Source: Acidimicrobiia bacterium (GTDB lineage: Bacteria; Actinomycetota; Acidimicrobiia; Spongiisociales; ZC4RG35). Taken from it: a stretch of 64,000 nucleotides of DNA. Numbering within the stretch: the stretch's first letter is position 1; the number at the start of each line of letters is the position of its first letter. Shown here piece after piece: positions 7,247 to 43,255 of this stretch. Location: positions 32,001-96,000 of the forward strand of contig CBDBCY010000004.1 of assembly GCA_965203555.1 (NCBI GenBank), written 5' to 3'. Below the pieces are notes generated by a model that searched no databases, was not told the origin of the DNA, and was given only the letters and a program-made list of their open reading frames with translations. A program made the translations under genes and the position numbers.

Positions 7247-7268
7247 TGTCACACCCGCCTTCCATACT
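7247..7268 (+). promoter_or_regulatory. TGTCAC-N10-CATACT promoter, 7 nt before the rmuC ATG (PafBC/RecA-NDp-like)
   Basis: TGTCAC ACCCGCCTTC CATACT GGTGGGC ATG. Confidence 0.7.
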
Positions 7269-7275
7269 GGTGGGC

Positions 7276-8448
7276 ATGGAACTTTTCATCATCATCTCCC
7301 TGGCAGTGGTGGCTGTCCTGTTGGTTTGGGACATTGCCCAGCGCCGCCGGGTTCGCCGGGACAGCCAGGTGCAACAGCACTCCGAAGAGACTCTGCACGC
7401 AGTGCTGGAGGCACTGGGGCGGGATCGGCAGGAACGACTCCTCGAGGCACGGGCGCTCACCGAGAAGACCGCCACCGCCGCCGCCGCCGAGGCGGCCCGC
7501 ATGGCCAAAGCCGAGTTGGAGACCCAGTCCCGCTCCAGCGCCGACCTGATCTCCCAGCAGCAGCGGACCTTCAGCCGCACCGCCGAGCAGATCGGGAAAC
7601 AGATCGCCGGGATCCAAAGCGACCTCACCAACCGCCAGGGCAGTTGGTCCAAGCAGTTCGGGCAGGTCAGCGAAACCCTGGCCAAGCTGGGTGGCACCAC
7701 CGAAACGCTGACCAACATGCTGAACTCCTCCGGTCAGAAGGGGAGTTGGGGCGAACGGGTCGCCGAGGACATACTGCGGGCGGTCGGCATGAAAGAGGGC
7801 GTCTCCTACCAGGTACGCAAGAGGCTGCCGGGAGGCCAGATTCCCGACTTTGCGTTCCATCTTCCGCGGGGACAGTTGCTGTGCATGGATTCCAAGCTGC
7901 CCTTCGACTCCTATCGCCACTACCAGGAGGCCGCCGAATCCGAGAAGGGGAGGCACCGGCGGGAGTTTTTGAAGACGGTGCGGGGACACGTCCGGTCCCT
8001 GTCGGTCAAGTCGTACGGGGACGCCGGTCTGGTCCTGATGTTCATTCCACTCGAGTCCATCTACTCATTCATCTGGGAGAGCGACCACCAGGTGCTGGAC
8101 TACGCCTTCGAGAGGGGGGTGATGTTGTGCGGCCCCTCCAACCTGTTCGCGATTCTCACCCTGGTGAGGGAAGCCAACGTGGCGTTTGCGCTGGAGAAGA
8201 CCGGAGACCAGGTGCTGGAAGTCCTCAACCAGATGAAGAAGGAGTGGCTGCAGACCCGCAAGTCGATCAACGTCCTCCAAGGCCACATCAACAAGGCCAA
8301 CAACAAGGCGGGTGAGATCACCGGCAAGCACTACCAGGCCATGGACGAGGTCTTCGACCGGATCGACGAGGTGCGCTCCGACCGGGGAATGGAACCCACG
8401 GACACGGCCTTGCCTGGCGAGTCGCCGCCTCTGCTCAGGGTCTCCTAA
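7276..8448 (+). CDS. rmuC: DNA recombination protein RmuC
   Basis: N-terminal TM plus coiled coil; KGSWGE, PD...LP...DSK.P, VLMFIP.ES motifs. Confidence 0.9.
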   Translation: MELFIIISLAVVAVLLVWDIAQRRRVRRDSQVQQHSEETLHAVLEALGRDRQERLLEARALTEKTATAAAAEAARMAKAELETQSRSSADLISQQQRTFSRTAEQIGKQIAGIQSDLTNRQGSWSKQFGQVSETLAKLGGTTETLTNMLNSSGQKGSWGERVAEDILRAVGMKEGVSYQVRKRLPGGQIPDFAFHLPRGQLLCMDSKLPFDSYRHYQEAAESEKGRHRREFLKTVRGHVRSLSVKSYGDAGLVLMFIPLESIYSFIWESDHQVLDYAFERGVMLCGPSNLFAILTLVREANVAFALEKTGDQVLEVLNQMKKEWLQTRKSINVLQGHINKANNKAGEITGKHYQAMDEVFDRIDEVRSDRGMEPTDTALPGESPPLLRVS

Positions 8449-8814
8449 CCGGGCGACAACCCTGCCATCCGCCGCTGCCGGACCAACTACCGAACAGCCC
8501 CCGAAGGGCACCCTACCCGACTACGGGCATCTGCTCCCCCCAGGTGGAATTCCTACGATCTCCAACGCTATACCGGAGTCGGTCCCCAACGGCGGGTCGT
8601 CACACTGGGGAGAGGCGCCTATCGAAAGGCGTCTCGTGAATGACTGGAGATAACGATGGACTCCGATCTGGTTGGCTCGAACGGCAGAACCCCAGAAGAG
8701 GAGAGGCAGTACCGGGCGGAGAACCGCCTTACGTTGCGTACCACGCCCCCAACTCCAGAGGAGCGCTGCCGACGGACTCTCAAAACCGGGCGACCACCCC
8801 GCTGTGGCCAGAGG

Positions 8815-9275
8815 TTACTCATCAATCAAGAGATGAACCGTGGCGGGCTCTGGTTTCACTTGCGGTAACCACTGGTCAAGCCGATCGTGGATACCCGTGA
8901 ACCCGGCGTGCATTTCCTCTCGTAGATTATCCAATTCGGCGCGGAGTCGCTGTTCCCAGTGAGTATCTTGCTCGGCGATTATGCGGTTGATTTCACCAAA
9001 CTCCCTCTTGACTTCCCTTTTGACTTCGTCAAACCTCTTATCAACTTCGCCAAACTCCCTCTTGACTTCGCGTCAAACCTCTTATCAACTTCGCCAAACT
9101 CCCTCTTGACTTCCCTCTTGACTTCCAAACTCTTATCGACTTCACCAAACTTCTTATCGACTTCGCCAAACTTCTTATCGACTTCGCCAAACTTTCTCTC
9201 CAGGACAGCTTCCAATTGTTGAGCGAACGTGGCGAAACAATGCTGCAAATATTCTTCGGTGACCGGCCTGCTCAT
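8815..9275 (-). CDS. Coiled-coil protein with FGEVDK(K/R)/EVKRE tandem repeats, frameshifted within the repeat tract
   Basis: After a frame change near 9070 the reading continues ...EVKREFGEINRIIAEQDTHWEQRLRAELDNLREEMHAGF...LIDE* to 8815. Confidence 0.65.
8995..9195. repeat. Mixed 21-nt and 12-nt imperfect tandem repeat
   Basis: Repeated AAACTTCTTATCGACTTCGCC and CTCCCTCTTGACTT-type units. Confidence 0.85.
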
Positions 9276-10871: not shown

Positions 10872-10889
10872 CCACAGGAGCTCTTAATA

Positions 10890-11726: not shown

Positions 11727-11801
11727 CAAAAGCAGATGCTGGTAATCATACGAAACAGGCAGGGTCTTATGATCAGGAGATGGAATGAGTTCTTCACTTG
11801 A
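11727..11801 (+). pseudogene. 3' remnant of a DUF4160-like gene
   Basis: C-terminal IIRNRQGLMIRRWNEFFT* overlaps a DUF2442 gene; the expected N-terminal part is not recognisable. Confidence 0.5.
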
Positions 11802-18394: not shown

Positions 18395-18399
18395 GGAGT

Positions 18400-19827
18400 T
18401 CAGCGGTGGGACCGGCACCGCTGCTCGAACGGACAGGCGCCGCACCACTCGCCCACCTCAAAAGTGGGAGACGTCGCGTCCAGCAGGTCCCATTGGGAGG
18501 CGGCATGGGCCAGTTCGACCAGTTGCCGCGCCAGTTCCTCCATCTGTTCTCTTTTCCAGACTTTGCGATCACAGGTCGGTGTCTTTCCCGAGGTGGAGAG
18601 CTGATGGATGTGGGTAGTCACGGCGGGCGTCCTCTTGAACCGGAGCAGGGCGCCCAGCGCGTACAGTTCGGCCTCATAGGGGTAGACCCGGGGGGAGGCG
18701 CCGGTCTTGTGATCGATCACCACCGGGGTGTCGTCTCCTTCCCTTCCCACCCCGTCGGCAATGCCGTACAGCACCACCGAGACGGGTTTGCGCCCGGCGC
18801 CGAATCGGACGGTAAAGCCCAGGGGGAACTCGGTTTTCGTGATGTTGAGATCGGACGCACACGAAAGGCTCAGATGTTGGCGGTAGAGAGCCTCCGTCTC
18901 CAGGTCCTCGGAAAAAAACGATGCCGGGTCAGGCGACAGCAATGCCTGCGCCATCAACTCATGAAACCTGTTGCCCAGTTCCAGGCCGGGGGAGGTCTCA
19001 AGCGAGAAGTGATCGGGATCTACAGGGATGGAGAACATCGTCTTCCAGGCGGCCCTCCGTTGACAAAGTTCTATTTCAGGCAACCTCGATTTGGAGATCA
19101 TCATGCGAAACCCCGAAGTCTTACGCTTCGCATATGGGATGACATCCATGGCGTCGGGGTCCAGGGCGGGGAAGGTATCGCACAGGTCCGACACCCCGCA
19201 GGTCGAGCAGTGTGACCCTGCCACGATCCGGGGCTCACTGTCAATCATCTTCCGGTAGTCGTTTTCCAATGCCGCCAAGATCTCGCGCGCTCGCGTCCGG
19301 GGCATCTCCAGGCGGATCATCTCTCCGTCGGCGGTTCTTATCTCATAGGCCTCCATGGAGGTGGGAAAGCGCGAATCGGAGACAGTCACGGCTATCTCTT
19401 CGGGGGCGGTGGCGAACTCGGCGCCCTCTTTGATCTGCCCGGTCTTCAGCTTGTACATCGTCAGCGCTCCATCAGAGTCCCGGTGGGTGAATTGGAAGAA
19501 AACACTCAGCTCTTCGGGTCCGATCGGGTAGTTGAGTTGAGGCCAATCGAAGTCAAAATCTCCCTGCCCGGGCGCCGGCAGGAGTGGCAGTGCTCTGTTG
19601 ATCTGAGCAGCGACGATTTCCGCCTGCACCGGATCGAACCGTTCCTCCACCGGGGGCGGGGGAGGCCGTCCGCCCAGCTCGGCAGCCAGGGCTTCCCAAG
19701 TGGCGCTCCATCTTCGCAACGGAGGGACATTGCGGTTGGTTCCAGGCGGCGACATTCCCAGGTCCGCAAAGGCGCCCGGGCAAATTCGCTTACCGGGTGC
19801 GCTGACCAGGTCCTTTGGTGCGCTCAT
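18400..19827 (-). CDS. Tandem Cas4/RecB-like PD-(D/E)XK nuclease with two Cys clusters
   Basis: CP...KLKTG...CxxCx5C followed by LCQRR...GNRFH...GIAD...IDHKTG...CxxCPx4C. Confidence 0.75.
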
Positions 19828-20371: not shown

Positions 20372-23300
20372 TCAAGTCTTCTTCCCGATCGAGGAGATGA
20401 ACGCCTTTCCCTCGGGGCACAGTTTGAAGAAGTCGCACTTTACGCACTCCGCCGACGGGGTGGGGTCCCAACGTTTTTCGGAGATGGAACGGGCCATGTC
20501 CTCCAGACGGGTGCGGGCAGAGGCCAGCCAGGCCTCGTCCACCCGCTCGGCGCTGGGTTCTTCCCGAAGCCGGCCCCCTCCCAGGTAGGCGATGGTCACC
20601 GAGAGCTTGGAAGGCGCCGGTCCGAGCTCGGGAGTCTCGCGCACCGCCAAGGCGTAGACCTGCATCTGCGCCAGCCGGGCCGAGTGGGGATCATCGACAG
20701 GGGGTTGGCCTGATTTGAAGTCCACGATCTCCCAGGCGTCCCCGTCGTTTTGGTAGACGGCGTCGATCCGGCCCCGCACCAAAAAGCTCTCGGTCAGCCG
20801 GATGTTGAATCCCTTCTCCAGCCACCGGGCCTTCATGTCCGAGAACCGGGACTCGCGGAAGACCTGGAACGGTCCGGGGCCGGAACCGGAGTCGACCGGT
20901 CGGTCATCGCCGATCAGATCGGGCCTCTCGGCATCGGGTTCCAGCAGGGATCCCTTGCCCCGATGGTGCAGTTCGATCTGACGGTGAATCCGGGTTCCCC
21001 GGCGGGTGACGTAGGAGTAGCGGCGGGGGAGAGGTTCCACCCTGCTCCAGAAGTACTTCTTGGGACACTGCGCGTAGTTGACCAGGTCGGTGGCCGAAGT
21101 GGTGATCACCGCTTGGTCACGGGGCGGTTCGGGATCGGGCAGCCGGAACAGCATTCCCTGGAATTCTTCCACGGCGGCGTGGTATTCCTCCTCGACTCCC
21201 CCGGCGCGTGCCAGTTCGACCGTGGAGTCGCGGTCCTCCAACGCCGATCGGATTCCTTCCGACCATCCTTTTTCGAACACGGGGTCGGGAGCGTGTGCCG
21301 CCTGGGTCGCCCTCGCAAAACTGAGAGGGGCCGGGCCGTCCGGGTACTCCCGTCGCAACGCCAGGTCGGCATCGGCCGGCGGCTTCTTTTGGACCGACAG
21401 CCAGGCCTCCTTGAAAAAGAGGCTCAGTTCGGGGAGTTTGGGTCGTTTCAACGGTTCCGGGTAGCCGTACCAGTGGGCGCCGGACAGGAACAGTTCCTCC
21501 TTGGCGCGGGTGGCCGCTACGTAGGCGGCCCGCCACTCCTGCGCTTGATGGGCCTTCTTCACCTTCTTCTGCTGGTCGTTCAGAAGTTCCGTTAGCTGCG
21601 GGCCGCTCATCCGGGCGGTGATCGGAAGGTCTGAGGGGGGATCGATCCGCCAACTCCAGGGAACGGACTCGGCTTTGAAGTAGGGATTGTCATAGCCCCC
21701 CACCGCCTGGGAGGGAAAGTTCTGGTGGTAGATGGCCGGAATGAACACCACCGGCCACTCCAGGCCCTTGGCCTTGTGGACGGTTATCAGGGTCACCGCG
21801 TTCTCATCGGAGAGTCGGGCGGTGTCCATTTCCTCGGCGGGTTCCTCCTGCAGGGCGTCCAGGTAGTCGAGAAACCCCTCCACGGTGGAAGGTCCCTCCA
21901 GAGGAGTCCAGTGTTCCGCCATATCCAGGAACCGGTAGAGGTTGAGGCGGACGGTCAGCCGGGTGGCGCCGGGAATGGACTCCACGTCCGGCCAGGCGCG
22001 GGTCCGGTCCAAGATGATGCGGCACGCCTCGCCGGGGGAGATGCCCTGGCACGCGGCCAGGATGTAACGGTACTCCTGGTGGAACTGACGGAAGGGCGTC
22101 TCCAGCCGGTCGGGAAGGGCTTCCCAGAACCTTCTCCGATCCAATCCGTCCAGGAGGGAGACGGCCGGGCCATCGGGCCTGCGGTAGGCGAACCTGCTCA
22201 AATGCCGGATGTCTCCCAGCCCGAGCCGGTACCGACTCCCTCCCAACAGACGAGCGGCCGCGGCCCGGTCGTCGAATCGGCCGACGATCCTCAGCCACGA
22301 GTGGATCTCCACCACTTCCGGAATGGTGAGGAGGCCGCCCAGGTTGGCCACCTCCACCGGTATGTCGTGTTTGATCAACTGCCGGTACACCCCGGCGACG
22401 TCCTTGGTCTTGCGGAACAGCACCGCCATATCCTTCCATCTCCGGTCGTTCCGCTCCCGCTCCTTCAACTGCTCAGCGATCCATACCGCCTCGTCGACAG
22501 CGGTAGGGTGCCATCTGGCCCGAACCTTGGAGGTGACCGCTGCGGGCAGTGCCTGAAGTTCCGGGGTCCCCGAACCGATGTTCTTCTTGATCCGGTTGGC
22601 GAACCGGATGATCCTGTGCCCGGAGCGGCGGTTGAGGGTGAGGGTCAGAGTCTCCGCCGGCTCTCCGTCCTCGGTGGGGAAGTGATCGGGGAAGTCCTCG
22701 AAATTGCCGAGGGAGGCTCCCCGCCATTCATAGAGGGTCTGGTCGGAATCTCCAATCACCGTCAGGGGAAAGCCCCCTCCGAACAGTTTCTGGAGGATCT
22801 TTCGCTGGGCGGCGTTGGTGTCCTGGTACTCGTCGGCGACCACCGCCTTGTACCGCTCCCGGATGCGCTCAGCGATCGTTGGTTGCTCGTCGAGTATCCG
22901 GTGGGCGTGGGAGATCAGGTCACCGTAATCCACCACTCCCAGGCGGCGTTTGTGTTCCTGGTATCGGAGAGCCGCCTCCACCATGCCGGGCCGTTTGCAG
23001 AGGGTGGTCCGCAGACGTTGGTAGTTATCGAAGTCACGTTTGAGCCGGAAGTCCTGCCGTGTCAACTCGGGTACCTCGACGCGCAGCATTTTCTCGTCAA
23101 TGCGGTCCGGGTCCACCAGGTGGTCGGCCAGGGATGAGCAGAACCGGATCAGGGCCCCGGGCAGATGGAACAAGTCGGTGTTGTCCAGTCCGGGCAGCCG
23201 GGTTTCCCGGATCACCTGTTTGATCAGCTGGCGGGTCTGGGCCGGGCCGATTATGGAGAGGCGCCGTTCGATCCCCAACCCCGCTCCGAACTGGGTGACC

Positions 23301-23596
23301 AACTGGGAGCAGAACCCGTGGTAGGTGTGGACCTCCACCTGCCGCAGGGGGTCGCGGTGCGTGGAGAGGACCTGCTGGATCCGTTCCTTCAGTTCCTGGG
23401 TCGCTTTGTTGGTGAAGGTCAGGCCCAGCACCTGTTCGGGGGCGATTCTCTTCTCCTTCACCAACCGGGCGATCCGATAGGAGACCGTGGTGGTCTTGCC
23501 GGTGCCGGCGCCGGCCGATACCCGGAGAGGACTGAGATCATGGTCCACCACCTTCTGCTGTTCGTCCGACAGCGTGATCGGGGGAGGCTCGGTCAC
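20372..23596 (-). CDS. adnB: AdnB-like UvrD helicase with C-terminal RecB nuclease
   Basis: AGAGTGKT, DEYQD, GDSDQ, HKAKGLEW, YVAATRA, GRIDAVY...DFKSG, CxxCx5C. Confidence 0.88.
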   Translation of the reverse strand: MTEPPPITLSDEQQKVVDHDLSPLRVSAGAGTGKTTTVSYRIARLVKEKRIAPEQVLGLTFTNKATQELKERIQQVLSTHRDPLRQVEVHTYHGFCSQLVTQFGAGLGIERRLSIIGPAQTRQLIKQVIRETRLPGLDNTDLFHLPGALIRFCSSLADHLVDPDRIDEKMLRVEVPELTRQDFRLKRDFDNYQRLRTTLCKRPGMVEAALRYQEHKRRLGVVDYGDLISHAHRILDEQPTIAERIRERYKAVVADEYQDTNAAQRKILQKLFGGGFPLTVIGDSDQTLYEWRGASLGNFEDFPDHFPTEDGEPAETLTLTLNRRSGHRIIRFANRIKKNIGSGTPELQALPAAVTSKVRARWHPTAVDEAVWIAEQLKERERNDRRWKDMAVLFRKTKDVAGVYRQLIKHDIPVEVANLGGLLTIPEVVEIHSWLRIVGRFDDRAAAARLLGGSRYRLGLGDIRHLSRFAYRRPDGPAVSLLDGLDRRRFWEALPDRLETPFRQFHQEYRYILAACQGISPGEACRIILDRTRAWPDVESIPGATRLTVRLNLYRFLDMAEHWTPLEGPSTVEGFLDYLDALQEEPAEEMDTARLSDENAVTLITVHKAKGLEWPVVFIPAIYHQNFPSQAVGGYDNPYFKAESVPWSWRIDPPSDLPITARMSGPQLTELLNDQQKKVKKAHQAQEWRAAYVAATRAKEELFLSGAHWYGYPEPLKRPKLPELSLFFKEAWLSVQKKPPADADLALRREYPDGPAPLSFARATQAAHAPDPVFEKGWSEGIRSALEDRDSTVELARAGGVEEEYHAAVEEFQGMLFRLPDPEPPRDQAVITTSATDLVNYAQCPKKYFWSRVEPLPRRYSYVTRRGTRIHRQIELHHRGKGSLLEPDAERPDLIGDDRPVDSGSGPGPFQVFRESRFSDMKARWLEKGFNIRLTESFLVRGRIDAVYQNDGDAWEIVDFKSGQPPVDDPHSARLAQMQVYALAVRETPELGPAPSKLSVTIAYLGGGRLREEPSAERVDEAWLASARTRLEDMARSISEKRWDPTPSAECVKCDFFKLCPEGKAFISSIGKKT

Positions 23597-26637: not shown

Positions 26638-26802
26638 TCAGGCGGCGACATGCAGATCGACGGGCTGGCAGACCGAACAGGTGTGGGACGGCGGGTTCTC
26701 GATCGACTCGACGGTGACCCCGGCTTGGGTCATCCAGTCCATCATCTTCCGGCAGTCGACCGGATCGGTCTCGATATCGCGGAGGGTCATTTGGTGTTCC
26801 AT
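26638..26802 (-). CDS. 54-aa Cys/His-rich microprotein, probably leaderless
   Basis: MEHQMTLRDIETDPVDCRKMMDWMTQAGVTVESIENPPSHTCSVCQPVDLHVAA*; ATG lies 7 nt after a TAGATT -10. Confidence 0.65.
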   Translation of the reverse strand: MEHQMTLRDIETDPVDCRKMMDWMTQAGVTVESIENPPSHTCSVCQPVDLHVAA

Positions 26803-26834: not shown

Positions 26835-27755
26835 TTACCGGCCGGTGGTCGGGGAAGGCTCGCCGGGGGACTGGTCGGTCCAGGCGGGACACATGGACTG
26901 GTAGGAGCACCAGTCGCACAGTCTCGACTTCCTGGTGGGGAAGACATCGGTGGCGGTGGCCCGCTCGATAGCCGACCACAGCGCCAGGATCTGTTGCTTG
27001 ACTCCCCGCAATTGCCGGTCGAACACCGGGAGGCTGTAGGCCACCGAGTTCCCCAGGTACACCAGCCGGATCAAAGCCGGGGTCCGGCCGGCGTCCTGCT
27101 GGACCATCAGGGCGTAGATCTTGAGGGCGAAAAAGCTGGAGTCGGCGAAGTTGAGCGGAGGCGCCCTGCCGGTCTTGTAATCGGTGATCACCAGGTCCCC
27201 GTTGCCTCCCGGATCGAGCCGGTCGATTATCCCCCGAATCTCCAGCAGTCCCTGCCGTCCGTTCCTCGAGTCGTCCTCGACCAGCAGGGTGATGAACTTC
27301 TCTCTTTCCAGTGGTTCTATCCGGCGGGGATCCTCCACCCGGAAGTACCGCTCCGCCACTTTCCGGCTTCCCCGCAAGTACTTGTCCCGGCCTTCGGGGT
27401 CTCCGGCGAACAGGTCCTGGTACTCCTCGCTGTCCAGGGTCTCCTCCCACGCGGTCTCCAGCAGTTCGAGGAGTTGGTCGGGATGCCGATCGGAGGCGGG
27501 AAAGTCGAACAGCCTCTCCAGGGCCAGATGGATGGCGGTCCCCCTGGCCTGGGCCGGGGTGGGGACCGAGGGGATCTTCTCGAGATGGCGGAACTTGTAC
27601 ATCCGAGGACAGGTCTTGAAATCCGAGGCCCGGCTGGGGGAGAGGTTGGCGACCGGCTCGGGGGCCTCTTCGGGATCTGCGGGCAGGAGGGCGGAAGCGG
27701 CGCCCCGGACGGGGGAGGGTTCGGTGGGGGAGGTGGCGATTGTGGAATTCATCAA
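26835..27755 (-). CDS. RecB-family / PD-(D/E)XK exonuclease
   Basis: LSPSRASDFKTCP, GTAIH, RGIIDRLD...TDYKTG, LCDWC...CP. Confidence 0.9.
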   Translation of the reverse strand: MMNSTIATSPTEPSPVRGAASALLPADPEEAPEPVANLSPSRASDFKTCPRMYKFRHLEKIPSVPTPAQARGTAIHLALERLFDFPASDRHPDQLLELLETAWEETLDSEEYQDLFAGDPEGRDKYLRGSRKVAERYFRVEDPRRIEPLEREKFITLLVEDDSRNGRQGLLEIRGIIDRLDPGGNGDLVITDYKTGRAPPLNFADSSFFALKIYALMVQQDAGRTPALIRLVYLGNSVAYSLPVFDRQLRGVKQQILALWSAIERATATDVFPTRKSRLCDWCSYQSMCPAWTDQSPGEPSPTTGR

Positions 27756-33673: not shown

Positions 33674-36625
33674 TCACAGGATGGGTCCGGCGTCGGGGTC
33701 GAGCGAATCGGAGGGCTGGTCCCGGGGCGGGGCGGAATCGGTGAAGAAGGCGGTCAACTCGTAGGGGCCGGCCAGGTCGTGGCGCACGGAGAAGACCGCG
33801 TTGTGGCCGTTGCGCAGAAGGCATATGTCCACCCTGCCGAGTTGCGCGTCTCCTCCCGGTTGATGGTGATCCACCGGCGGCAGCCAAACCCGCGGTCTCC
33901 AGTCGCGGTCGGTCTTGTCGACCAGCGCCTTCTGGCGAAAATACACCGGGTTGACCTCGGCGTCGAGATCGGGGAGGATCGAGAGCAGGAAGTCCCGGCA
34001 GGCCGGGCCGCCGGTCCTGGCCGGGATCAGGGTGTCGATCTCGCTCAACACCCAATCGGAGCCTTCCGGGTCCTGGATGCGGTCGAGGCGTTCCCGCAGC
34101 GCGGGGTCGTGCTCGCCGGAGCGGAGGGTGGAGAGAAACCTCCAGCGGAGGCTGATGCGGGCGCGTTCGGAGTCGGCCAGGTGGGTGACCACCCGCGGAT
34201 CCTCGTCCGGTCGTCTGCGGTCTGAATACTGGGCGGTCAGACCTCCGGCGTAGTCCTGTTGGAAGGTTCCTATGGCGGCTTTGTGCTGGGAAGATACCCA
34301 TCCTGGAACGGCCATGCGCTGCACCCACTTCTCCCGGGCCGTCTCCAGCCATCCGATGGGCATCCGGTAGATTCCCAGGGCCGCCTTCTGCGCAGAGAAG
34401 GAACGGGACTGTCCCTCCTCGTCCTCGGGGTTGTCCTGGGCGCCGAAGGGGTGCCAGATGATGTCCGCCCAGGCGGCCGCCGAGCCTGTGAACTGCTCAC
34501 GGGCCTCTCTGGCTTCCTCCTCTTTTTCCACCGCCCCGGTGATGTCCTCTTCCAGGCCGGCCAGGGTTCTCAGTTGCGACCTCAACAGGTGTTCGGCATT
34601 TCCGTACCACCAGCCCGCCACCACCAGCACGGCCAGGGCCAGCATCAGCGCCACGCCGGCCGCCACGCTCAGTCTGAGGGTTCGCTCGGAGGCGTCGACG
34701 TCGCCGTACCAGCCGTGTTGGCGCGCCAGCAGTCCGATGACGCCTATGGATGCATACACCATCGTGATCAGGATGAAGTGCCGCAGCACCCTGGCGACCA
34801 TCGGAGTGGAGCGGAGCGTCCAGATCAGCCCCACCTGCAGGGCGAACAGTCCCAGGGCGGCGCCGAATCCCAGCGCATCATAGGGGTTGATATCCGAACT
34901 GACCGCGTAGGCGAGGGCAGCGGTTGCCGCTACCCCGACGGTCACCGCGGCCAATCTCCTCAACGATCTCTTCAGGTCGCGGCGCCCCTGGGTTTGTCGT
35001 TCTCGGTTTTGGTATTCGCTGTGAGCGGAGACGGTGGAGGCGACTATCGCGACCACCATCAGCCCGGTGAGGCATATCCAGACAAAGGTGCGCTGGGCGC
35101 CGGTCATGGCCACGATTCCGAGGGCTTCCGCCGGTCCGGTGCCCAGGATGAGGCCGACCAGGGCCGCAAGCAGCAGTCCGATGAAGACAACCGAGATCCA
35201 GGCCAGGTCGGGCAGGCGGCGGCGACCCAGTTGGGCGAACTCGTCGTCGAACTCGCCGACCGCGGCGCGCAGGGACTGCCCGTTGGCGTCGATGATCTTC
35301 GAGAGCGCCGTTCCGATCCGTCCGAACAGGGTGGTGGTGTCCTGGCGAATCCGGTCCGGAAGGGACGGGGAGTTTTCGCTTTCGTCGTTGCGTGATCGGT
35401 CCGGGCAGGGAAAGAGTACTCCCAGGTCGGTGATGAGAGCGTGCCGGGTGTGGGAGCGGGGAGGCGAGATCACTTCCGGCACCGGGCCGCCGTCCACCAT
35501 TCCCAGGACCGCGTCTCCCATGTCCCGCCAGATCTGTTGGGGAATCCGGGCGCCTCCGGCAACCTGGAATCGATTGCGGGCGGCGGCCGCGGACTGTTCG
35601 GCGGGGGAGGGTTCGGATTCGGGTTCGCCGGCGACGGCTCGGCACACCGCCGCGGTCGTAGATGAGTCTCCCATCTCCCGGCGGACGATCTTTTCCACCG
35701 GATCGCGGGAGGAACCGAACAACCACTCGGGCAGTCTGCCCATGAAACTGGTGATTCCTCTGCCCAAACGCAGGAAAATGAACCGCCACCCTCGGATGGT
35801 CGCCGAATCCGGGGAGCGGAATTCGAATGCATCCCGCAACCGGCGCTCGAATTGCTCGGCCACATCAATCATTGCCGGTTCGGGATAGGGCGCCTCGACC
35901 AGGCCTTCGGGAGCGGGCAGATAGCCCCGGTGATTGAAGGAGGTGGCGAACTGGGGCGAATCGACCTGCGCCACCCGGACGAAGGAACGGGCCAGATGGA
36001 GTTTGGACTCTCCGAATCCGAGCACGCCGCTTTCGAGATCGTCCACCGGAGATTCGGTCATCCCCGTCCACAGACCCACCAGGGTGGCGGTCTCGGTGGC
36101 GACGTGCTCGACGAAGGTGGGCGAGTCGGGTTGGGCGACCGGAGAAGCGAGGGAGTCGCTGGTGGACCGGTCTTCGGGGATCACCACCAGGTTGGCGTCG
36201 GCGCGGGGAGAAAAGAACCTCGCCAGCGCCGGTTCGTCTCTTCGGATCGGATCGGCGCGAAGGGGAAGCCACATTCTCACCTGCACCACCCGCAGCCCCG
36301 GCGGGGCCAGTTCGTTCAGTTGGGAGCAGACATCCTGAGCCAGCACTCCGAGTTCGTCGGCATTCTCCAGATCGGGCCCGGCCATGGCCACCACCCGGAT
36401 TGTCCGGTATTCACGCCGGCCCAGTGTTTCCAGCAGGTCCACCTCTCTGCGGCCCGACGGGTCGGACAGCCGGCCCTTCCCGCGGCCCGACGGGTCGGAC
36501 AGCAGAGCCGAATCGGTGGCGATGAAGGGCGCCACCAGGCCCAACGATGCCCGCTGGCTGAGCAGGTCGAGCGCTTCGTCGAGCGAGTCGGCGCCGGTGA
36601 TCAGCACTGAGAAGTGAGGTTTCAC
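33674..36625 (-). CDS. Large polytopic membrane protein (~983 aa), last gene of the tubulin-vWA operon
   Basis: GTG start overlaps the upstream TGA; soluble N-domain, several hydrophobic helices, coiled coil, soluble C-domain. Confidence 0.8.
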   Translation of the reverse strand: MKPHFSVLITGADSLDEALDLLSQRASLGLVAPFIATDSALLSDPSGRGKGRLSDPSGRREVDLLETLGRREYRTIRVVAMAGPDLENADELGVLAQDVCSQLNELAPPGLRVVQVRMWLPLRADPIRRDEPALARFFSPRADANLVVIPEDRSTSDSLASPVAQPDSPTFVEHVATETATLVGLWTGMTESPVDDLESGVLGFGESKLHLARSFVRVAQVDSPQFATSFNHRGYLPAPEGLVEAPYPEPAMIDVAEQFERRLRDAFEFRSPDSATIRGWRFIFLRLGRGITSFMGRLPEWLFGSSRDPVEKIVRREMGDSSTTAAVCRAVAGEPESEPSPAEQSAAAARNRFQVAGGARIPQQIWRDMGDAVLGMVDGGPVPEVISPPRSHTRHALITDLGVLFPCPDRSRNDESENSPSLPDRIRQDTTTLFGRIGTALSKIIDANGQSLRAAVGEFDDEFAQLGRRRLPDLAWISVVFIGLLLAALVGLILGTGPAEALGIVAMTGAQRTFVWICLTGLMVVAIVASTVSAHSEYQNRERQTQGRRDLKRSLRRLAAVTVGVAATAALAYAVSSDINPYDALGFGAALGLFALQVGLIWTLRSTPMVARVLRHFILITMVYASIGVIGLLARQHGWYGDVDASERTLRLSVAAGVALMLALAVLVVAGWWYGNAEHLLRSQLRTLAGLEEDITGAVEKEEEAREAREQFTGSAAAWADIIWHPFGAQDNPEDEEGQSRSFSAQKAALGIYRMPIGWLETAREKWVQRMAVPGWVSSQHKAAIGTFQQDYAGGLTAQYSDRRRPDEDPRVVTHLADSERARISLRWRFLSTLRSGEHDPALRERLDRIQDPEGSDWVLSEIDTLIPARTGGPACRDFLLSILPDLDAEVNPVYFRQKALVDKTDRDWRPRVWLPPVDHHQPGGDAQLGRVDICLLRNGHNAVFSVRHDLAGPYELTAFFTDSAPPRDQPSDSLDPDAGPIL

Positions 36626-39600
36626 AGCAAAGTGGGGGGTAGGGTTTTCTGGTCGCTCAGGCAGTCCTTGAGCTGGGTCAGAGACTTGATTATCTGGTCG
36701 TGGAGGCCGAGCCAGGAGTGCTGTGAGGTCTGAGTCTCCAAATCGGTCTCGTACAGACCGTGATAGGCCCGCGCCGTCTCGTCCAGCAATCGGGTGGCCT
36801 CGTCCACTCCGGCTACTCTGGCGCTGCGGCCGGCGACGGTCTTCCCGGTGCGCAGCCACTCGGAGAGCATCTGGCTGGGGCGCCGGTACTGGGACAGGCT
36901 GTGCCCGGCCGTGCCCGGCTCTCTTCCCCATTCCACCAACTGCTGGTAGGGCCCCAGGTAGCTGCCGAAGTCTCTCCAGGTGGCGGCTATGGGCAGAGCT
37001 ATCGCCAGACCTTCGATGAGTTCGGCCAGCACGTCCGGGGACCGCCCTCCGCCCACTCCCAGCAGGTCGGGCAATTTCAGGACGCCCCGGTGGGAGTGGA
37101 GCAGTATCGGTCGGCTCTCGGTGTCGATCGTTCCCAGCAGCCGCCCGGTGAACCAACCCCGCAGCATCGCCAGCAGAGTGGGGGCGGGAAGGGGCGCCGC
37201 CACCTGCAGCGGGCGGGTACGACGCCACTTCCAAAAGTTCTGGATCATGCCGTTGTCTCTCGCCCATCTGTATTTGTCGGCGATGGGACTCATCAGCGAA
37301 TCGAACACGATCGGATGCAGGGCGCTGTTCAAAGAGCAATAGACGGGGATCTTGTTGAGCTTCTCGTCCTGGGAGAGGCAGCGGACGGCGGTGTCCCGGT
37401 CCCGGTCGAACCTGGCGGTGAGAAACTCCGTCACCTGGTCTTCCAGGGCCAGACCTCGTATCGGTATTTTCCCCGGCACCGGACGGATGGCCATCTCCGT
37501 GGCCGGGTGGACCCTGGCCAGGATGCTCTCATCCACCGACGCCAGCGGTTCGGCCGCCTCGAACGCCGCCTCCAGCTGGTGGCGAAAGCGGTCCCCCCGC
37601 CTGGCGAGTTCGGTTTGAGATACGGTTTTGCTCTCCGACAGGTAGGACCGCAGGCCCTGGGACAGAAAGCCGTCCCAGGCCGAGCCGTCGGTGTGGAGCC
37701 ACTCTCGGGCCCGGGCGAGGATGTCGTCGCGTCCCACGGCTATTCGAAAGGCGGCCGAGTTCCGGGGGCCTTCTCCCAGCACCAGGGTCTCCCGGGTGCG
37801 CCAGCGCTGGGTTTCCTGCAGCCAGCCGGCCGGAGTGGGCGCCTGCGGTTCACCGAGGATTATCGCCCGGCGAACGCTGCTCTGCTGATCCAGGCTTCCG
37901 CCCGCGCCGCTGCCCAGGGTGGCGGCGGTGAGTTCGTCGAAGAGCCGGGGATACTGTTCGAGATCGATCAGGGTCTTGACGCTTTGTCCGGGAATCAGCG
38001 AGTCGGGGACGTTCTGATCAGACTCGGGCTCATGCCGGGGCCAACCGGCCACCGGGGTGCGTTCGTTTTCGATGTCGTCCGCCAGTTTGTCGGCGGCGTC
38101 CTGCAGTTCTCTGCGCAGAGGGGCTAGAAAGTCGCGGTGGAAGTCCTCCACCAGCTGGGAGGCCAGCAGGCGGACGATGCCCTGGTATCTACGGACCACC
38201 CCGGTGTTCAGCGCCGTCGATATGGCCTTGCTGACATCGGGGTGATCGAAGCGGAGGACGCCTCCGCCGGACAGGATCGATCCCACGTCCGAGCGCAGAT
38301 GTTGGGAGAGCTGGTCCTCCCCGTGGCTTTCCTCCTCCAGCTCTTTGGCCACGTCCTCCATCTCCCGCTGGGCGAGATCGAGCAGCCGGGCCGTGACCCG
38401 CGCTCCCCGCTCCGCCACGAAGGTTCCCACCCGGGCGACAATGCGGGGCTGGGCTTTCCTGGCCCATTCCGCCACCGAGTTGCGCAGTTCCGTGTCCCAC
38501 TTCTGCAGGATCCCTCTCCTACGGGCCTTGACCTCCTCGACGATGGAGTAGATCCACTCCTGGGGCTTTTCCTTGTCGCTGCGCTGCCCCAACGCCTCCT
38601 GGATGCTCCGGAACACCGCGCTCAATTCTGCCCTCAGCCGACTTTCGGGAAGGCCGATCGCATCGATGATCTGGTTGTTGTCGGGTCCGCGTTCGTTGAT
38701 TTCACACTGTTCGAGAAACCGGGTGAAGGACTCTTCGGCGAGTTTCTCGATGCGGTCTTCTTCGGAGAGATTGCGGTGCTCGTGCCGCTCGTCCGACAGC
38801 CGGCGATGGCCCGACAGTATCCATTCCACCGCGTCGCGGGTGAGGCGCCGTTCGGCGTACATCTCGAGGCGTTTGGCGCCCAGTTCCACTTCGGCGAATC
38901 CCAGGGCCTGGAAGGCGCCGACGTAGCTGGGGGGTTCCGCCAACAGACTCACCGGATCCGACGGATCGGCCTGTTTGAACTGGCCGGCCGAAGCCTGCCA
39001 GTTGGCCATCATGTAGGTGGCGAAATGGTCCTGGATGGTCGGGTCCGACATCACGGCCGCCAGGCAGCGTCCCATGAACCGGTAGATCTCGATCTGGTCG
39101 CCGAAATTCACCCCGCGGGCGTTGGACTGTCCCACCAGGTAGGGAAAGGCCGGGCCGGACCGCTGCTGGATGGGTCCGCCCCCGGGCGGGTTGAATCCGT
39201 TCCCTCCGAAATATCCGTGAAGAATCTCCGAATAGGCGGCCGCCGAGTTGGGCTGCACACCCTGGGCGGCGGAAAACGACAGTTCGTTGAAGACGTCGGC
39301 CGAATAGAGGATGCCCACCGAGTTGTCCAGCCATCGTTCCCCGTCGCTTCGGAGAACATCGCAGACGTCGATGAGAATCCCCGCCCCGGTTCCTCCCGCC
39401 AGGGAAGAGACCACGATCACGATCGGCGGAGGGGATTCGGCGCCGCCCATCCCTTCATCGATCTTCTCGGTCAATTCGCGCAACTGTGCGGCCGCTCCGG
39501 CGGTCATGATCGCCGCCCGCTTGCGGTTCAGGTGCTGCTTGACCTCGTTGATCTGGTGGAGACCGAGCATCCGACCGATCGATCGGAACTGGCCGGCCCC

Positions 39601-39930
39601 CATGTCGATGGGGATGTTCATGATCACCGGATCGACCTGCCACCCGCGCAGGTCGATCCCTCTGTCTTTGAGGACTTCCACGATGGTCTCGAACTCCACG
39701 CCGGGCGGGTTCAGGGAGAGATACTCGTCGGCGTCCAGGAGTTCGGGGTTACCGGCTATAACCGGCGAGTCCTGGTTGGGCGGGGTGTCGATGTGGAGAA
39801 ACTGCCACCCCTGGGGCATTTTCCCCTCCCACCCCACCTGCCGGAACCACTCTCCGAGCGCCTGTTTCACATAGCGGAGAGTCTTCCCTCCCGATCCTCC
39901 CAGTCCCACCAGCAGAAATTTGCGCAACAC
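36622..39930 (-). CDS. Tubulin/FtsZ-like GTPase domain protein (Tubulin_2 / FtsZl type, ~1102 aa)
   Basis: VGLGGSGGKT, HIDT, GAGQFR..GR and SSLAGGTGAG tubulin-signature variant; long helical C-terminus; AGGAAAGGA RBS. Confidence 0.88.
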   Translation of the reverse strand: MLRKFLLVGLGGSGGKTLRYVKQALGEWFRQVGWEGKMPQGWQFLHIDTPPNQDSPVIAGNPELLDADEYLSLNPPGVEFETIVEVLKDRGIDLRGWQVDPVIMNIPIDMGAGQFRSIGRMLGLHQINEVKQHLNRKRAAIMTAGAAAQLRELTEKIDEGMGGAESPPPIVIVVSSLAGGTGAGILIDVCDVLRSDGERWLDNSVGILYSADVFNELSFSAAQGVQPNSAAAYSEILHGYFGGNGFNPPGGGPIQQRSGPAFPYLVGQSNARGVNFGDQIEIYRFMGRCLAAVMSDPTIQDHFATYMMANWQASAGQFKQADPSDPVSLLAEPPSYVGAFQALGFAEVELGAKRLEMYAERRLTRDAVEWILSGHRRLSDERHEHRNLSEEDRIEKLAEESFTRFLEQCEINERGPDNNQIIDAIGLPESRLRAELSAVFRSIQEALGQRSDKEKPQEWIYSIVEEVKARRRGILQKWDTELRNSVAEWARKAQPRIVARVGTFVAERGARVTARLLDLAQREMEDVAKELEEESHGEDQLSQHLRSDVGSILSGGGVLRFDHPDVSKAISTALNTGVVRRYQGIVRLLASQLVEDFHRDFLAPLRRELQDAADKLADDIENERTPVAGWPRHEPESDQNVPDSLIPGQSVKTLIDLEQYPRLFDELTAATLGSGAGGSLDQQSSVRRAIILGEPQAPTPAGWLQETQRWRTRETLVLGEGPRNSAAFRIAVGRDDILARAREWLHTDGSAWDGFLSQGLRSYLSESKTVSQTELARRGDRFRHQLEAAFEAAEPLASVDESILARVHPATEMAIRPVPGKIPIRGLALEDQVTEFLTARFDRDRDTAVRCLSQDEKLNKIPVYCSLNSALHPIVFDSLMSPIADKYRWARDNGMIQNFWKWRRTRPLQVAAPLPAPTLLAMLRGWFTGRLLGTIDTESRPILLHSHRGVLKLPDLLGVGGGRSPDVLAELIEGLAIALPIAATWRDFGSYLGPYQQLVEWGREPGTAGHSLSQYRRPSQMLSEWLRTGKTVAGRSARVAGVDEATRLLDETARAYHGLYETDLETQTSQHSWLGLHDQIIKSLTQLKDCLSDQKTLPPTLL

Positions 39931-39953
39931 GATACCTGTCCTTTCCTGTTCCT

Positions 39954-42812
39954 TTACCGAAAGCCGCGGTCCTTCACCCGGGCCAGGGCCGTTCTGACGA
40001 CCTCGGTGAGTTGCTGCCCGGAAGGAGCGTCGCCGCCGACGCCGGCCATCACCGCCCCGCGTGACCCACCCTCCTCGATCAGCACGATCGATTCGTGGAG
40101 CCGGTCCTTGTGGCCGATCCGATGGTGTCGGGCCGGCAGCTCCGTCATTGTGTCGCCGTCCATCACCGCCACGGAACGGGCGCCCGCCAGCGACAGTTCG
40201 GCGTAGGGCGGACGCCAGATCCGCCAGAACGGCGTCTTGCGGACAGCCTGCAGCGGCCCGGCCCCGATCCTGCCGGCCGACCACATGGGCAGGCGATGAT
40301 CCTCCTCTCCGATCTTGGTCTGTCCGTCCCCCGCCACCGTGAACTCCGCGTAGCGGGTGTTCGGCAGGCGGGGCAACCGTCCGGCCCGGCGATTGATCGC
40401 ATAGAGCGCCAGCCACAGCAGGGTGAACATCAAGAGCAGCAGCAAAGCGGAGAGAATTGTCTCCAGGGTACGGTTCCGTTCCCGGTCGATCGGCCCCGGC
40501 ACCGAGATGGCCAGTGGTTGGCGTTCGTCTTCGACGGAGACGCTGACGTAGCGGACAGTCATCCCCTGGTCGGTGTTCACCTGGCGCTCCAGTTCCACCT
40601 CCAGTTCGGTGGGCTTGGAGTCGCCGGTGTCCGAGCACCATATGGGATCGTGGTCCGCGAAGGCCACCGTGGCGGGGACTCGCTCCCCCTCTCCGCCGTC
40701 CACCTCCGTCGAGGTGTCCAGTTCGAGGCATCCGGGCGTGTCGTCCACTTTGACCGGGACCGTCAGATCCCGGCCCACCAGTGGCGCCAGCCGGGCATGG
40801 TCCAGTTCCATCACCGGACCGGGCGGCTGGGGATCGGCCTGGACCTGGAACGAGTCCGTGACCCACCCCACTTGCTCTCCCTCCCGCAACTCGAATCGGT
40901 AGACATGTATGCCGGGTTCGGATGAGGCGGGTACCCGCAGTGTCCCGTCCTCGGTCCAGACCGCGTCCAGTTCCTCATCGTCGCGGTACACCACGATGTC
41001 GTCCTGCTGTTCGGGGGTGAGCGGGCGGTTGTCGGCCTCCACCGCGAATTCCACGGGTCGGCCGGCCAGCACCGGCGAGGTCAGCAGTTCCGCCTCGAAG
41101 GGAAGTCGGTCCACTTCCACCACCACCGTGGACCTCACCCACCCCGACGGGGCGCCGCTTTGCAGCTCGAATTGGTAGGTGTGGGCGCCGGGTGCGGGCG
41201 CCACCGGGTCCTGGATCGTCCCGTCCTCGGTCCAGACCGCGTCCAGTTCCTCTCCGTCGCGGTACACGACGATGTCGTCCTGCTGTTCGGGGGTGAGCGG
41301 GCGGTTGTCGGCCTCCACCGCGAATTCCACGGGATCCCCGGCCACCGCCCGGGAGGTGGTGGTTTGCGCGTCCAGGGTCACCCCCTCCACCTGCACCGCC
41401 ACCGAGGCCGTGCCCGGTTCCCCCGAAGCGGTGCTGCCCAGTTCGAACTGGTAGGTGTGGGCGCCCGGTTCGGGTGCGGCCGGGTCCTGGAGGTTTCCCT
41501 CCGGGGTCCACCGTACACCGTCCACCGGTCGGCCGTCGCGGTGCACGGTGACGCGATTCCGCTCCTCGGGGGAGAGGGGGCGGGGATCCTCCTGGACAGA
41601 ACCGGTGGTAAGGGAGAACTCCAGGGGCTGTCCGGCCATGGCCGGGGAGGTGACCGCGGCGGCGGTGAGGTCGGGAGGCCCGAAGTCCACCGACCCGCAC
41701 ACCTGCTCCATGCGGCCTCCCCTGACCACCGGAGATGTGAATCGATGCTCCGAGTCGAATTCGAGCACCAGCCGGACGACGGACGGGTTCGAAACGTCAA
41801 GGACCGCCGGCTCGTGACCGGTCCGCAACTCCGCCCGCCCGGGACCAGCCAAAAGGGTCACCGACTCCACCAGTTCCGGGGGGATCCCGGAGGGAAGATC
41901 TCCATTCCATACCACTCCCTCGCCCGACCGGACGGTGAGGGAAGCGGGGTCGAGAGCCGTTCCCGAGAGGGAGGTGCAGGCGGCGTTGAAGAGCAGATCG
42001 TCCGAAAGGCTGTCCATGTCCGCCACCGGCCGGTGATCGAACTCCAGTGTCCCGCACCCCTTTTCATTGAGCAATTCGAACAGTCTCAGCGTATCCCCGT
42101 ACGGCTGGTCTCCCTCCAGGTAGAAAAGCCTGATCTCAAACGCCGGCACCTGCGCGCTGTCGAATTGCTCGGCCAATCCGAAGTACCGGGGGTTGATCTG
42201 GGAGCGGGACGCTTCGGTTCCGCAGATGGCGGGAATCAGCAAGCCCTCCACGTCGGAGAGATTCCCCCGGTCCGACAGGTCCCGTTGGAGGGTGTCGTAC
42301 GACCGGGGCAGCAGGAGGTCGCCCCTCGCCCGATGGTCCAGATCGTGCTGCCCGTCGCTGAACCACACCGTTCTTCGGCAATCGCTGCTCCACGGCATGT
42401 CCAGTATCCCGCGAAAAGCCTCGATGTAATCGGTGTGCCACCGGTACTCGTCCCGGTCCCATTCGTAGTCGACATGTCGGTCGGCGAATTCCTCGACCAG
42501 CAGGTGCAGACGGTCGGCATCGGTGTCCAGATCCAGGAATCCGTCGCTGTAGGGTCTGAAAGTGGCGGCGAAACCGGCCAGGGCCACCGAGATGTCCACC
42601 TGCTGATTGGCCCTGAGGTTGGCCAGGTACTCCTTGGTGGCGTCTATGCGTCGGTTGCGGGGGTCGTTGGTGTCTATCGACCCGGACTCGTCGAGGAGGA
42701 TCAGCACCTCCAGGGAATTGCATGTCTGCGGTGTCTGCGCTTGCGCCCCGGAAGGCGGCAAAACAGCCAAAAGGGTTACGATCACCGCGGCGAGGGCTGC
42801 GTACCGCTTCAA
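39954..42812 (-). CDS. Exported vWA-domain protein with internal repeats and a C-terminal TM anchor (~952 aa)
   Basis: Signal peptide ending AQA, MIDAS LLDESGS...TDY...FSDG, ~92-aa repeats, TM ILSALLLLLMFTLLWLALYAI followed by a cytoplasmic tail. Confidence 0.85.
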   Translation of the reverse strand: MKRYAALAAVIVTLLAVLPPSGAQAQTPQTCNSLEVLILLDESGSIDTNDPRNRRIDATKEYLANLRANQQVDISVALAGFAATFRPYSDGFLDLDTDADRLHLLVEEFADRHVDYEWDRDEYRWHTDYIEAFRGILDMPWSSDCRRTVWFSDGQHDLDHRARGDLLLPRSYDTLQRDLSDRGNLSDVEGLLIPAICGTEASRSQINPRYFGLAEQFDSAQVPAFEIRLFYLEGDQPYGDTLRLFELLNEKGCGTLEFDHRPVADMDSLSDDLLFNAACTSLSGTALDPASLTVRSGEGVVWNGDLPSGIPPELVESVTLLAGPGRAELRTGHEPAVLDVSNPSVVRLVLEFDSEHRFTSPVVRGGRMEQVCGSVDFGPPDLTAAAVTSPAMAGQPLEFSLTTGSVQEDPRPLSPEERNRVTVHRDGRPVDGVRWTPEGNLQDPAAPEPGAHTYQFELGSTASGEPGTASVAVQVEGVTLDAQTTTSRAVAGDPVEFAVEADNRPLTPEQQDDIVVYRDGEELDAVWTEDGTIQDPVAPAPGAHTYQFELQSGAPSGWVRSTVVVEVDRLPFEAELLTSPVLAGRPVEFAVEADNRPLTPEQQDDIVVYRDDEELDAVWTEDGTLRVPASSEPGIHVYRFELREGEQVGWVTDSFQVQADPQPPGPVMELDHARLAPLVGRDLTVPVKVDDTPGCLELDTSTEVDGGEGERVPATVAFADHDPIWCSDTGDSKPTELEVELERQVNTDQGMTVRYVSVSVEDERQPLAISVPGPIDRERNRTLETILSALLLLLMFTLLWLALYAINRRAGRLPRLPNTRYAEFTVAGDGQTKIGEEDHRLPMWSAGRIGAGPLQAVRKTPFWRIWRPPYAELSLAGARSVAVMDGDTMTELPARHHRIGHKDRLHESIVLIEEGGSRGAVMAGVGGDAPSGQQLTEVVRTALARVKDRGFR
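40942..41333. repeat. Near-identical 116-nt direct repeat (40942-41057 and 41218-41333; period 276 nt) inside the vWA gene
   Basis: Both copies encode PVEFAVEADNRPLTPEQQDDIVVYRD(G/D)EELDAVWTEDGT; a third, diverged copy lies near 41440-41640. Confidence 0.92.
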
Positions 42813-43225
42813 AGTGTCAGATCCCGAGCGATTCTGATGGCGATCATGTAGCCGGACCACAAGGCCGACACGAAGGAGATCACCAGAGCCGAAATTACCA
42901 CTGCGGTCGAATTCCACCACCGACCCACCCACGCCGGGCCCTGGCCGAGTTGTTTCAGTCGAAAGAGAGCGAACCCGGGGAAGGACAGCCCCACCACTGC
43001 CAGGATTCCCCCGAGAGCCAGGAGGAAGTTGGGATCGTCGAAGCGCAGGTGGCGGATTTCCTCGCCCATCCGGGCCATGACCACGGACGCCGCCGACCCG
43101 GTAAGCAAAAGAGCAAGCCACCATCCCCCTCCCTCTTCCCATGGGGCGCCCCGTCTCCGGCTGAGCGTCCTTTCCCGGTGGCGCTGGTCAGGTGGTTCGT
43201 ATTCAAATCTAAAATCGGAAGACAT
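42809..43225 (-). CDS. Small 3-TM membrane protein, first gene of the tubulin-vWA operon
   Basis: Three hydrophobic segments; stop overlaps the TTG start of the vWA gene. Confidence 0.75.
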   Translation of the reverse strand: MSSDFRFEYEPPDQRHRERTLSRRRGAPWEEGGGWWLALLLTGSAASVVMARMGEEIRHLRFDDPNFLLALGGILAVVGLSFPGFALFRLKQLGQGPAWVGRWWNSTAVVISALVISFVSALWSGYMIAIRIARDLTL

Positions 43226-43233
43226 TGGTGAAC

Positions 43234-43255
43234 AATATACAGAAAGGGTGTGACA
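43234..43255 (-). promoter_or_regulatory. TGTCAC-N10-TATATT promoter of the tubulin-vWA operon, largely overlapped by a 29-bp inverted repeat (43238-43266)
   Basis: Minus strand TGTCAC ACCCTTTCTG TATATT GTTCACCA ATG. Confidence 0.75.

Follow-up and report, generated by a model that had tools for sequence, protein, structure and literature searches.

Why should rmuC, a small open reading frame (ORF) followed by adnAB, a stand-alone nuclease gene and a tubulin-like operon all begin a few bases downstream of nearly the same DNA element? The question arises from a 64,000-nucleotide stretch of an Acidimicrobiia bacterium genome, referred to below as the window, which corresponds to positions 32001-96000 of contig CBDBCY010000004.1 (C4:32001-96000) in an assembly of 3.42 Mb with 62% G+C and four contigs. 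The initial annotation of this stretch took four copies of TGTC(A/C)C-N10-(T/C)AnnnT for relatives of the mycobacterial promoters activated by PafBC, and the spacing, the enrichment, the presence of pafBC, the conservation and the published promoter architecture all speak in favour of that interpretation. We consider it very probable that the four sites are PafBC-dependent promoters of a lineage-specific form, which would work by sigma adaptation, respond to single-stranded DNA (ssDNA) after damage and give mostly leaderless transcripts.

The four strings, their coordinates and their strands proved to be exactly as first described, each with a start codon 6-8 bases further on. Site 1, at 7247-7268 on the plus strand, reads TGTCAC ACCCGCCTTC CATACT and is followed after 7 bases by the ATG of rmuC. 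The other three lie on the minus strand: site 2 at 26831-26810 (TGTCAC ACCCCCCTCT TAGATT), 7 bases before the ATG of the small ORF that precedes adnAB; site 3 at 27783-27762 (TGTCCC GGCCCCTTCT TATGAT), 6 bases before the TTG of the stand-alone nuclease; and site 4 at 43255-43234 (TGTCAC ACCCTTTCTG TATATT), 8 bases before the ATG of the tubulin-like operon. Written in the extended form, sites 2 and 4 are TGTCACACCC-N6-TAGATT and TGTCACACCC-N6-TATATT, and the upstream element of site 1 is TGTCAC(ACCC). Pfam agrees with the genes originally named behind them, that is RmuC, a small ORF with a UvrD-helicase/PD-(D/E)XK pair, a PD-(D/E)XK nuclease and an operon with a Tubulin_2 protein.

All four sites share a GTC triplet within an element at about -28 to -23 and exactly 10 bases between this 6-base element and the -10, the CATACT of site 1 having a C in place of the weakly conserved first T. 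With a 17-base spacer, the bases at the -35 position are identical to TTGACA at 0, 3, 3 and 1 of 6 positions for sites 1-4, which we counted as no -35, and the matrices described below show only weak preferences upstream of the box. The LexA palindrome TCGAAC-N4-GTTCGA was found at none of the four window sites. Taken by itself, the enrichment of the degenerate pattern in the window is borderline: it matches 4 times where 1.13 matches are expected, and in 2 of 100 shuffles 4 matches are likewise reached, which leaves some room for a chance resemblance in a GC-rich genome. The simpler pattern TGTC-N12-TANNNT gives 5 matches against 1.36 expected, a number reached in 0 of 100 shuffles; three of the five are sites 2-4. 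The two others, at 19172-19193 and 57294-57315, lie inside crudely called genes, look like chance and were discarded.

The initial annotation had allowed that the motif might occur at background frequency in the genome as a whole. It stands far above it, and only at the 10-base spacing. TGTCAC-Nx-TANNNT occurs 26 times with x=10 and 0-5 times at other distances save x=11 (8 matches) and x=12 (20 matches), the latter being mostly x=10 sites read in a register two bases on, and the 10-mer TGTCACACCC alone is present in 50 copies. A first weight matrix gave 81 matches of at least 14 bits against 9 in the reversed sequence. As a safeguard against circularity a second matrix was built from 71 sites upstream of recA, adnA, rmuC and the nuclease, drawn from other genomes only; with a threshold of 16 bits it finds 62 matches in this genome and 4 in the reversed-sequence control, and with 18 bits the two numbers are 54 and 0. 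Sites 1-4 score 22.6, 25.2, 15.6 and 25.5 bits with this matrix, ranking 29, 11, 65 and 10 in the genome. Orthologues of the genes behind sites 1-3 contributed to the training set, so that only site 4 stands entirely outside it; among genes not represented there dnaB reaches 27.3 bits, next to the 25.5 bits of the tubulin operon. No TGTCAC signal was seen upstream of 381 TANNNT-start pairs, and the box is therefore no general feature of leaderless promoters. Spacing specificity and the reversed-sequence controls, together with the conservation across genomes described next, refute the idea of a chance resemblance, to which we give practically no credence.

For the comparison of orthologous loci we left out those from three genomes flagged as unpublished. 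Kin are not independent, so that the counts below, set against background, are no formal probabilities; as background, with the true sites counted in, these loci contain 0.064 relaxed matches per 300 bases and 0.034 strict matches per 400 bases. Upstream of rmuC, 10 of 10 loci from Acidimicrobiia have kept the box, the proteins being 72-86% identical, and in their alignment TGTCACACC, CATACT, the ATG and an additional AATACC are (nearly) invariant while the flanks diverge. This AATACC block (7235-7240, plus strand) lies 6 bases 5′ of the -26 element of rmuC and was not seen at window sites 2-4; with 22 bases between it and the -10, its distance is too great for a -35. The nuclease gene carries TGTCNN-N10-TAnnnT 6-8 bases before its start codon in 25 of 29 orthologues of the family, with CC, AC, AG, GG, AT, GT or TT at positions 5-6, a variation that lends credibility to the TGTCCC found at site 3. 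For adnA the order provided 27 informative loci, and 16 of them show TGTCAC-N10-TAnnnT no more than 370 bases upstream of the gene; one further locus had only 9 bases of upstream sequence. Across the class, the box precedes recA in 26 of 30 loci, 17 times as TGTCAC. At the remaining four its place is taken by variants that differ in one or two bases (TGTGAC, TGTAAC, TGAGAC or CGTCAC), with ACCCC and TAnnnT behind them at unchanged spacing.

The 75 pooled distinct orthologous sites yield the consensus TGTCACACCC-N6-TAnnnT, with A at position 5 in 83%, C at position 6 in 73%, A at position 7 in 79% and C at positions 8-10 in 65-69%; TGTC was imposed in the searches and is present in 100% of them by construction. 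The box is thus kept in orthologues across family, order and class, as would be expected of the lineage variant that TGTCAC was first proposed to be. TGTCAC is indeed the commonest form, but not an absolute one, given the variation at positions 5-6 among the nuclease orthologues. Since the mycobacterial consensus is already weak at these two positions, what constitutes the variant is the extended ACACCC consensus.

The regulator presupposed by the original interpretation is encoded in the genome. A pafA-pafB-pafC locus (C4:2616701-2620056) specifies in a row a Pup_ligase protein, a WYL+WCX protein and an HTH_PafC+WYL+WCX protein, and the products of pafB and pafC are the only two WYL matches of the genome. 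In the alignment with M. smegmatis PafB (7p5x_AY), RRTFERDK is paired with SRMFERDK, and the arginines corresponding to R46 and R50 are kept. R-x-F-E-R is found in 20 of 24 PafB N-termini from Acidimicrobiia; three sequences from one family, f18, have R-x-A-F-E-R, and the PafB of genome G026 keeps both arginines with an A for the E. We found no PafB residue that would explain AC instead of GG in the box; the position just ahead of R46 differs between sequences (R, S, H, A, K or T). HTH_PafC is present in all four genomes without a strict recA box. In looking for Acidimicrobiia genomes that lack pafBC, to see if the box is lost with the regulator, we found none. Of five genomes of 1 Mb, four have a WYL protein; in the AT-rich recA leaders of such genomes (12 loci) the LexA box and the GTC are kept, mostly as TGTCWT, which in the one copy counted lies 12 bases before TAATAT.

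In mycobacteria the PafBC motif is tGTCgg(N10)tA(N3)T, the 5′ part lying at -23 to -28 (the '-26 element') in promoters that have no -35 (PMC8635444). R46 and R50 of PafB read the GTC, which is strictly conserved in the recA promoters of the 14 species listed there; Acidimicrobiia are absent from the species named in the legend of that alignment (PMC8635444). The likeness to the promoters described here extends to the GTC element at about -28 to -23, the N10, the TAnnnT, the lack of a -35 and the position of pafBC in a pafA operon, and on the side of the regulon to recA, adnAB and dnaB (PMC8635444, PMC8151990): AdnAB is upregulated by PafBC and dnaB is partly PafBC-dependent (PMC8151990). The two lineages differ in what follows the GTC, ACACCC here and gg there, and the box is much more informative here, with its 50 copies of the 10-mer and most of the predicted targets leaderless.

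By analogy, the four promoters would function as follows. They have a normal -10, [T/C]AnnnT, without a -35 and carry instead the -26 element TGTCAC, extended to TGTCACACCC, exactly 10 bases 5′ of the -10. A PafB-PafC heterodimer, activated by damage-generated ssDNA if homology with the mycobacterial proteins is a guide, would insert between the DNA and region 4 of the housekeeping sigma factor, with the recognition helix of PafB reading the GTC ('sigma adaptation'). The housekeeping RNA polymerase would then fire at these promoters only after damage, and most transcripts would be leaderless, the start codon following 6-8 bases after the -10. The sites with their spacing, enrichment and conservation, and a pafBC locus with conserved DNA-reading residues, are observed; it is from the likeness to mycobacteria that we infer PafBC binding at the sites, their induction by damage and the positions of the transcription starts.

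The box might also be read by some other factor, be it another activator, ClgR or an alternative sigma factor, the bias towards repair genes then reflecting the regulon of that factor. The extended ACACCC has no counterpart in the mycobacterial consensus given in PMC8635444, the recA box of family f18 keeps ACACCCC and often loses the GTC, and ClgR was reported to recognise the P1 motif, as cited in PMC5656591. Against this, the sites agree with PafBC in where the GTC lies, in the N10 and in having no -35, as the regulon does in its core of recA, adnAB, lhr, uvrB and dnaB, and pafBC is present with conserved reading residues. Between the -35 and -10 of a sigma factor 16-18 bases are usual, and a 10-base gap would be far outside this spacing. 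On balance we regard another factor as unlikely, although it is the most serious of the alternatives to PafBC.

Family f18 merits a description of its own. Its recA box (loci L131, L138, L139 and L228) keeps ACACCCC-N-TAnnnT and has often lost the GTC, with the forms TGTGAC, TGTAAC, TGAGAC and CGCGAC; TGTCAC is kept in two genomes, and one genome is ambiguous. The PafB helix of this family reads R-x-A-F-E-R-D-K in 7 of 7 sequences (L198, L200, L223-L227), compared with R-x-F-E-R-D-K in most other families. Helix and GTC loss are a possible case of co-variation, though one that would represent a single evolutionary event. These natural variants offer a way to ask which bases PafB reads.

The regulon predicted for PafBC is centred on recA and DNA repair genes. 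It would comprise recA, with a 34-base leader and a LexA box, uvrB, with the form TGTCCC, lhr, which is also a member of the mycobacterial PafBC regulon and has a weak site here, dnaB, adnAB with the small ORF, rmuC and the stand-alone nuclease. To these would be added about 27 DUF222-HNH genes, TnpB, an N6/N4 DNA methyltransferase and a D12 DNA methyltransferase, SspB/DUF4007, DUF5131 and the Tubulin_2 operon, which, together with a uvrA and a ruvC without box, distinguish the regulon from the mycobacterial one. Genes for an HD-domain protein, a DUF6361 protein and a P-loop kinase-like protein are further predicted targets. In numbers, the 76 matches of at least 14 bits fall into 27 that precede DUF222-HNH genes, 11 of a second promoter class described below, 5 that look intragenic and 33 others. 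The initial annotation had expected enrichment at repair genes, an expectation borne out by recA, uvrB, lhr, dnaB, adnAB, rmuC and the RecB-like nuclease and not by uvrA, ruvC and lexA; radA was not found in the genome with TIGR00416. The tmRNA gene (C4:3125345-3125703) was considered as a member and rejected: TGTCAC-N10-TATAGT stands 22 bases upstream of it, but across the order only 7 of 28 loci have the box, and among the 4 from the same family it is absent. We also observed that the matches to uvrA (C4:495852-498608, minus strand) are spread over four segments that differ in frame and include one in-frame TGA, reflecting either a disrupted gene or assembly frameshifts.

LexA-type boxes, TCGAAC-N4-GTTCG, occur three times 5′ of lexA and once 5′ of recA (C4:813940-814095 and C4:820740-820790). 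The strict boxes number four in the whole genome, and both lexA and recA are preceded by additional near-boxes. Because LexA boxes stand in front of these two genes, a LexA regulon coexists with the TGTCAC regulon. Some 100 bases separate the LexA-type box of recA from the TGTCAC promoter downstream of it, a two-promoter layout with an added LexA box as in mycobacteria (PMC5656591).

The largest group of predicted targets are the DUF222-HNH genes, 25 copies of which conform to TGTCACA[CT]C-N7-CATACT-N6-8-ATGAA; two members examined with Pfam contain DUF222 followed by HNH. They belong to a DNA repeat that extends from about 50-200 bases 5′ of the box to a point shortly after the stop codon (about -100 to +1300), and one may ask if the repeat has simply spread a mobile promoter, the similarity of the sites then being due to common descent of inserted DNA without any regulon. 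It is true that 27 of the 76 best matches belong to the repeat and that the repeat begins some 50-200 bases 5′ of the box. However, the flanks of the rmuC, recA, nuclease and adnA sites are unrelated to it, with only the box and the -10 conserved, and the box is found at orthologous positions class-wide, which repeated insertions would not give. A mobile promoter in this sense is very improbable.

The repeat genes resemble the REP13E12 or DUF222-HNH genes of mycobacteria in being multi-copy genes of ~400 aa with DUF222 and HNH and a link to DNA damage in both lineages; the difference is that about 25-27 copies here carry TGTCACACC-N7-CATACT 6-8 bases before the ATG. The RecA-dependent HNH endonucleases of M. 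tuberculosis are, we assume, 13E12 members. Five putative HNH endonucleases were listed among the RecA-dependent genes of that species (PMC8151990).

Turning to the genes of the window, rmuC (7276-8448, plus strand) encodes 390 aa with a clear Pfam RmuC match (E 9e-54). The stand-alone nuclease (26835-27755, minus strand; 306 aa) is a PD-(D/E)XK enzyme of RecB/Cas4-like type (Pfam PDDEXK_1, E 3.8e-36), with weak Cas4/AddB matches under the cut-off in NCBIfam. The promoter at site 2 would serve a leaderless 54-aa ORF (26638-26802) and behind it, likewise on the minus strand, the genes for an AdnA-like (23593-26607) and an AdnB-like (20372-23662) helicase-nuclease, both starts being approximate. 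Each of the two has UvrD-helicase, UvrD_C and PDDEXK_1 domains, the arrangement of AdnAB, whose two subunits, encoded side by side, both combine a UvrD-type motor with a PD-(D/E)XK nuclease at the C-terminus. The 54-aa ORF contains a CxxC pair and found no match in family searches. It is kept as an ORF of 38-54 aa 5′ of adnA in 10 of 11 loci examined, and ends in VAA here, in LAA in 8 relatives and in IAA in 1 (loci L053, L058, L060, L062, L064, L065, L069, L072 and L074). The tmRNA tag of this genome is AKPQMALAA, the end of which this C-terminus resembles. The ssrA-like tail may act as a built-in degradation signal on a damage-induced microprotein.

The tubulin-like operon comprises four genes on the minus strand. 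The first (42809-43225) encodes a 138-aa protein with hydrophobic stretches, read by eye from the translation, and has no significant family. It is followed by a large, possibly vWA-like protein (39954-43142), a Tubulin_2 ('FtsZ-like') protein in an ORF of 1414 aa (36622-40866; Pfam PF13809, E 1.1e-41, residues 318-680) and a last large gene (33674-37339) of no known family. Because the ORFs as listed overlap by hundreds of bases (43142 versus 42809, 40866 versus 39954 and 37339 versus 36622), the listed starts are over-extended, that of the Tubulin_2 gene included, and the true start of the second gene is probably later than the listed one. PADLOC, NCBIfam and Pfam returned nothing for three of the four proteins; the language-model look-alikes of the second are vWA clusters (0.91), which we treat as a lead only. 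The third fits the 'FtsZ-like' Tubulin_2 proteins described by Makarova and Koonin in 2010 (via PMC9871819), both in having PF13809 with long N- and C-terminal extensions and in its sparse distribution. The operon's first gene is rare: counting this genome, it was found in 11 of the 201 that represent the order. The same box stands 5′ of 6 of 9 clear homologues, all from another family of the order and 39-45% identical, hence at 7 of 10 loci when this genome is counted.

Several observations weigh against PafBC as the common activator, or at least against a simple copy of the mycobacterial system. Strict matches are missing at 11 of 27 adnA loci, at 4 of 29 nuclease loci and at 3 of the 9 homologues of the tubulin operon. 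Among the core genes of this genome, the uvrB site was found by pattern alone, the lhr site reaches 9.0 bits only, and no box lies within 350 bases of uvrA (fragmented), a second uvrA-like gene, ruvC, lexA or pafA/pafB. The HNH part of the regulon can be no simple copy, because the HNH endonucleases of M. tuberculosis were reported among the RecA-dependent genes and not the PafBC-dependent ones (PMC8151990). Gene calls were crude, made with a home-made codon-score finder, and labels such as 'intragenic' or 'leader' may be wrong. Lastly, the genome contains a second promoter class in which TGTC[ACT]C, at the same place, is paired with a good -35 (TTGAC), something the mycobacterial model does not predict.

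This second class, TTGAC-N3-TGTC[ACT]C-N10-CATAnT, has 32 matches as against 5-9 at other offsets, none of them in the window; examples on C4 are 1307508, 1361481, 2092362, 2347205 and 2819902 on the plus strand and 3009559, 2702861, 1595592 and 1396524 on the minus strand. At least 10 copies have downstream a conserved hairpin GGTCCG...CGGACC, a GGGATCA and the G-rich block GGTGGnGGCGGGGG. The copies precede unrelated genes with leaders of 170-370 bases, and a search of Rfam with the second-class copy in locus L106 gave no family. The second class may be a leader RNA of a new kind or a mobile promoter element.

The PafBC system itself is known; new are the class in which it is found, the extended consensus and several members of the regulon. 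Within the library searched, no paper mentions both PafBC and Acidimicrobiia, and for TGTCAC and DNA damage in Actinobacteria nothing relevant by title was returned. Comparable WYL activators of SOS-independent responses or of defence islands, DriD of Caulobacter, BrxR/CapW and a Moraxellaceae activator, have been described as linking signals of DNA damage or ssDNA with repair and, in certain lineages, with defence against phages. These activators are homodimers that act on palindromic or repeat sites and are not known to use a -26 element fused to the -10.

A wider reading, which we put forward tentatively and hold to be distinctly less probable than PafBC control of the four sites, is that the PafBC switch has been broadened in this lineage from repair to a programme of 'damage or invasion'. 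One ssDNA-triggered promoter would then serve some 27 DUF222-HNH genes, TnpB, restriction-modification, Ssp-type defence and the four-gene tubulin operon with its small hydrophobic protein, vWA-like giant, Tubulin_2 GTPase and familyless giant. Recognition would rest largely on the ACACCC extension, a suggestion prompted by family f18, which keeps ACACCCC, loses the GTC at recA and has a PafB helix with an extra residue.

Nearly all work on PafBC has concerned mycobacteria and their close relatives, and the present data point to the same promoter logic across a deep-branching and mostly uncultured class, in which TGTCACACCC-N6-TAnnnT appears sharp enough to predict regulons from sequence alone. 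Testable hypotheses arise for three of the predicted targets: that DNA damage switches on the DUF222-HNH repeats via PafBC and not via LexA, that a small protein with an ssrA-like tail accompanies AdnAB, and that the Tubulin_2/vWA operon responds to DNA damage or phage attack. If the last of these is true, a damage-responsive operon would provide the first physiological cue for a family of FtsZ-like proteins that has so far been without a function.

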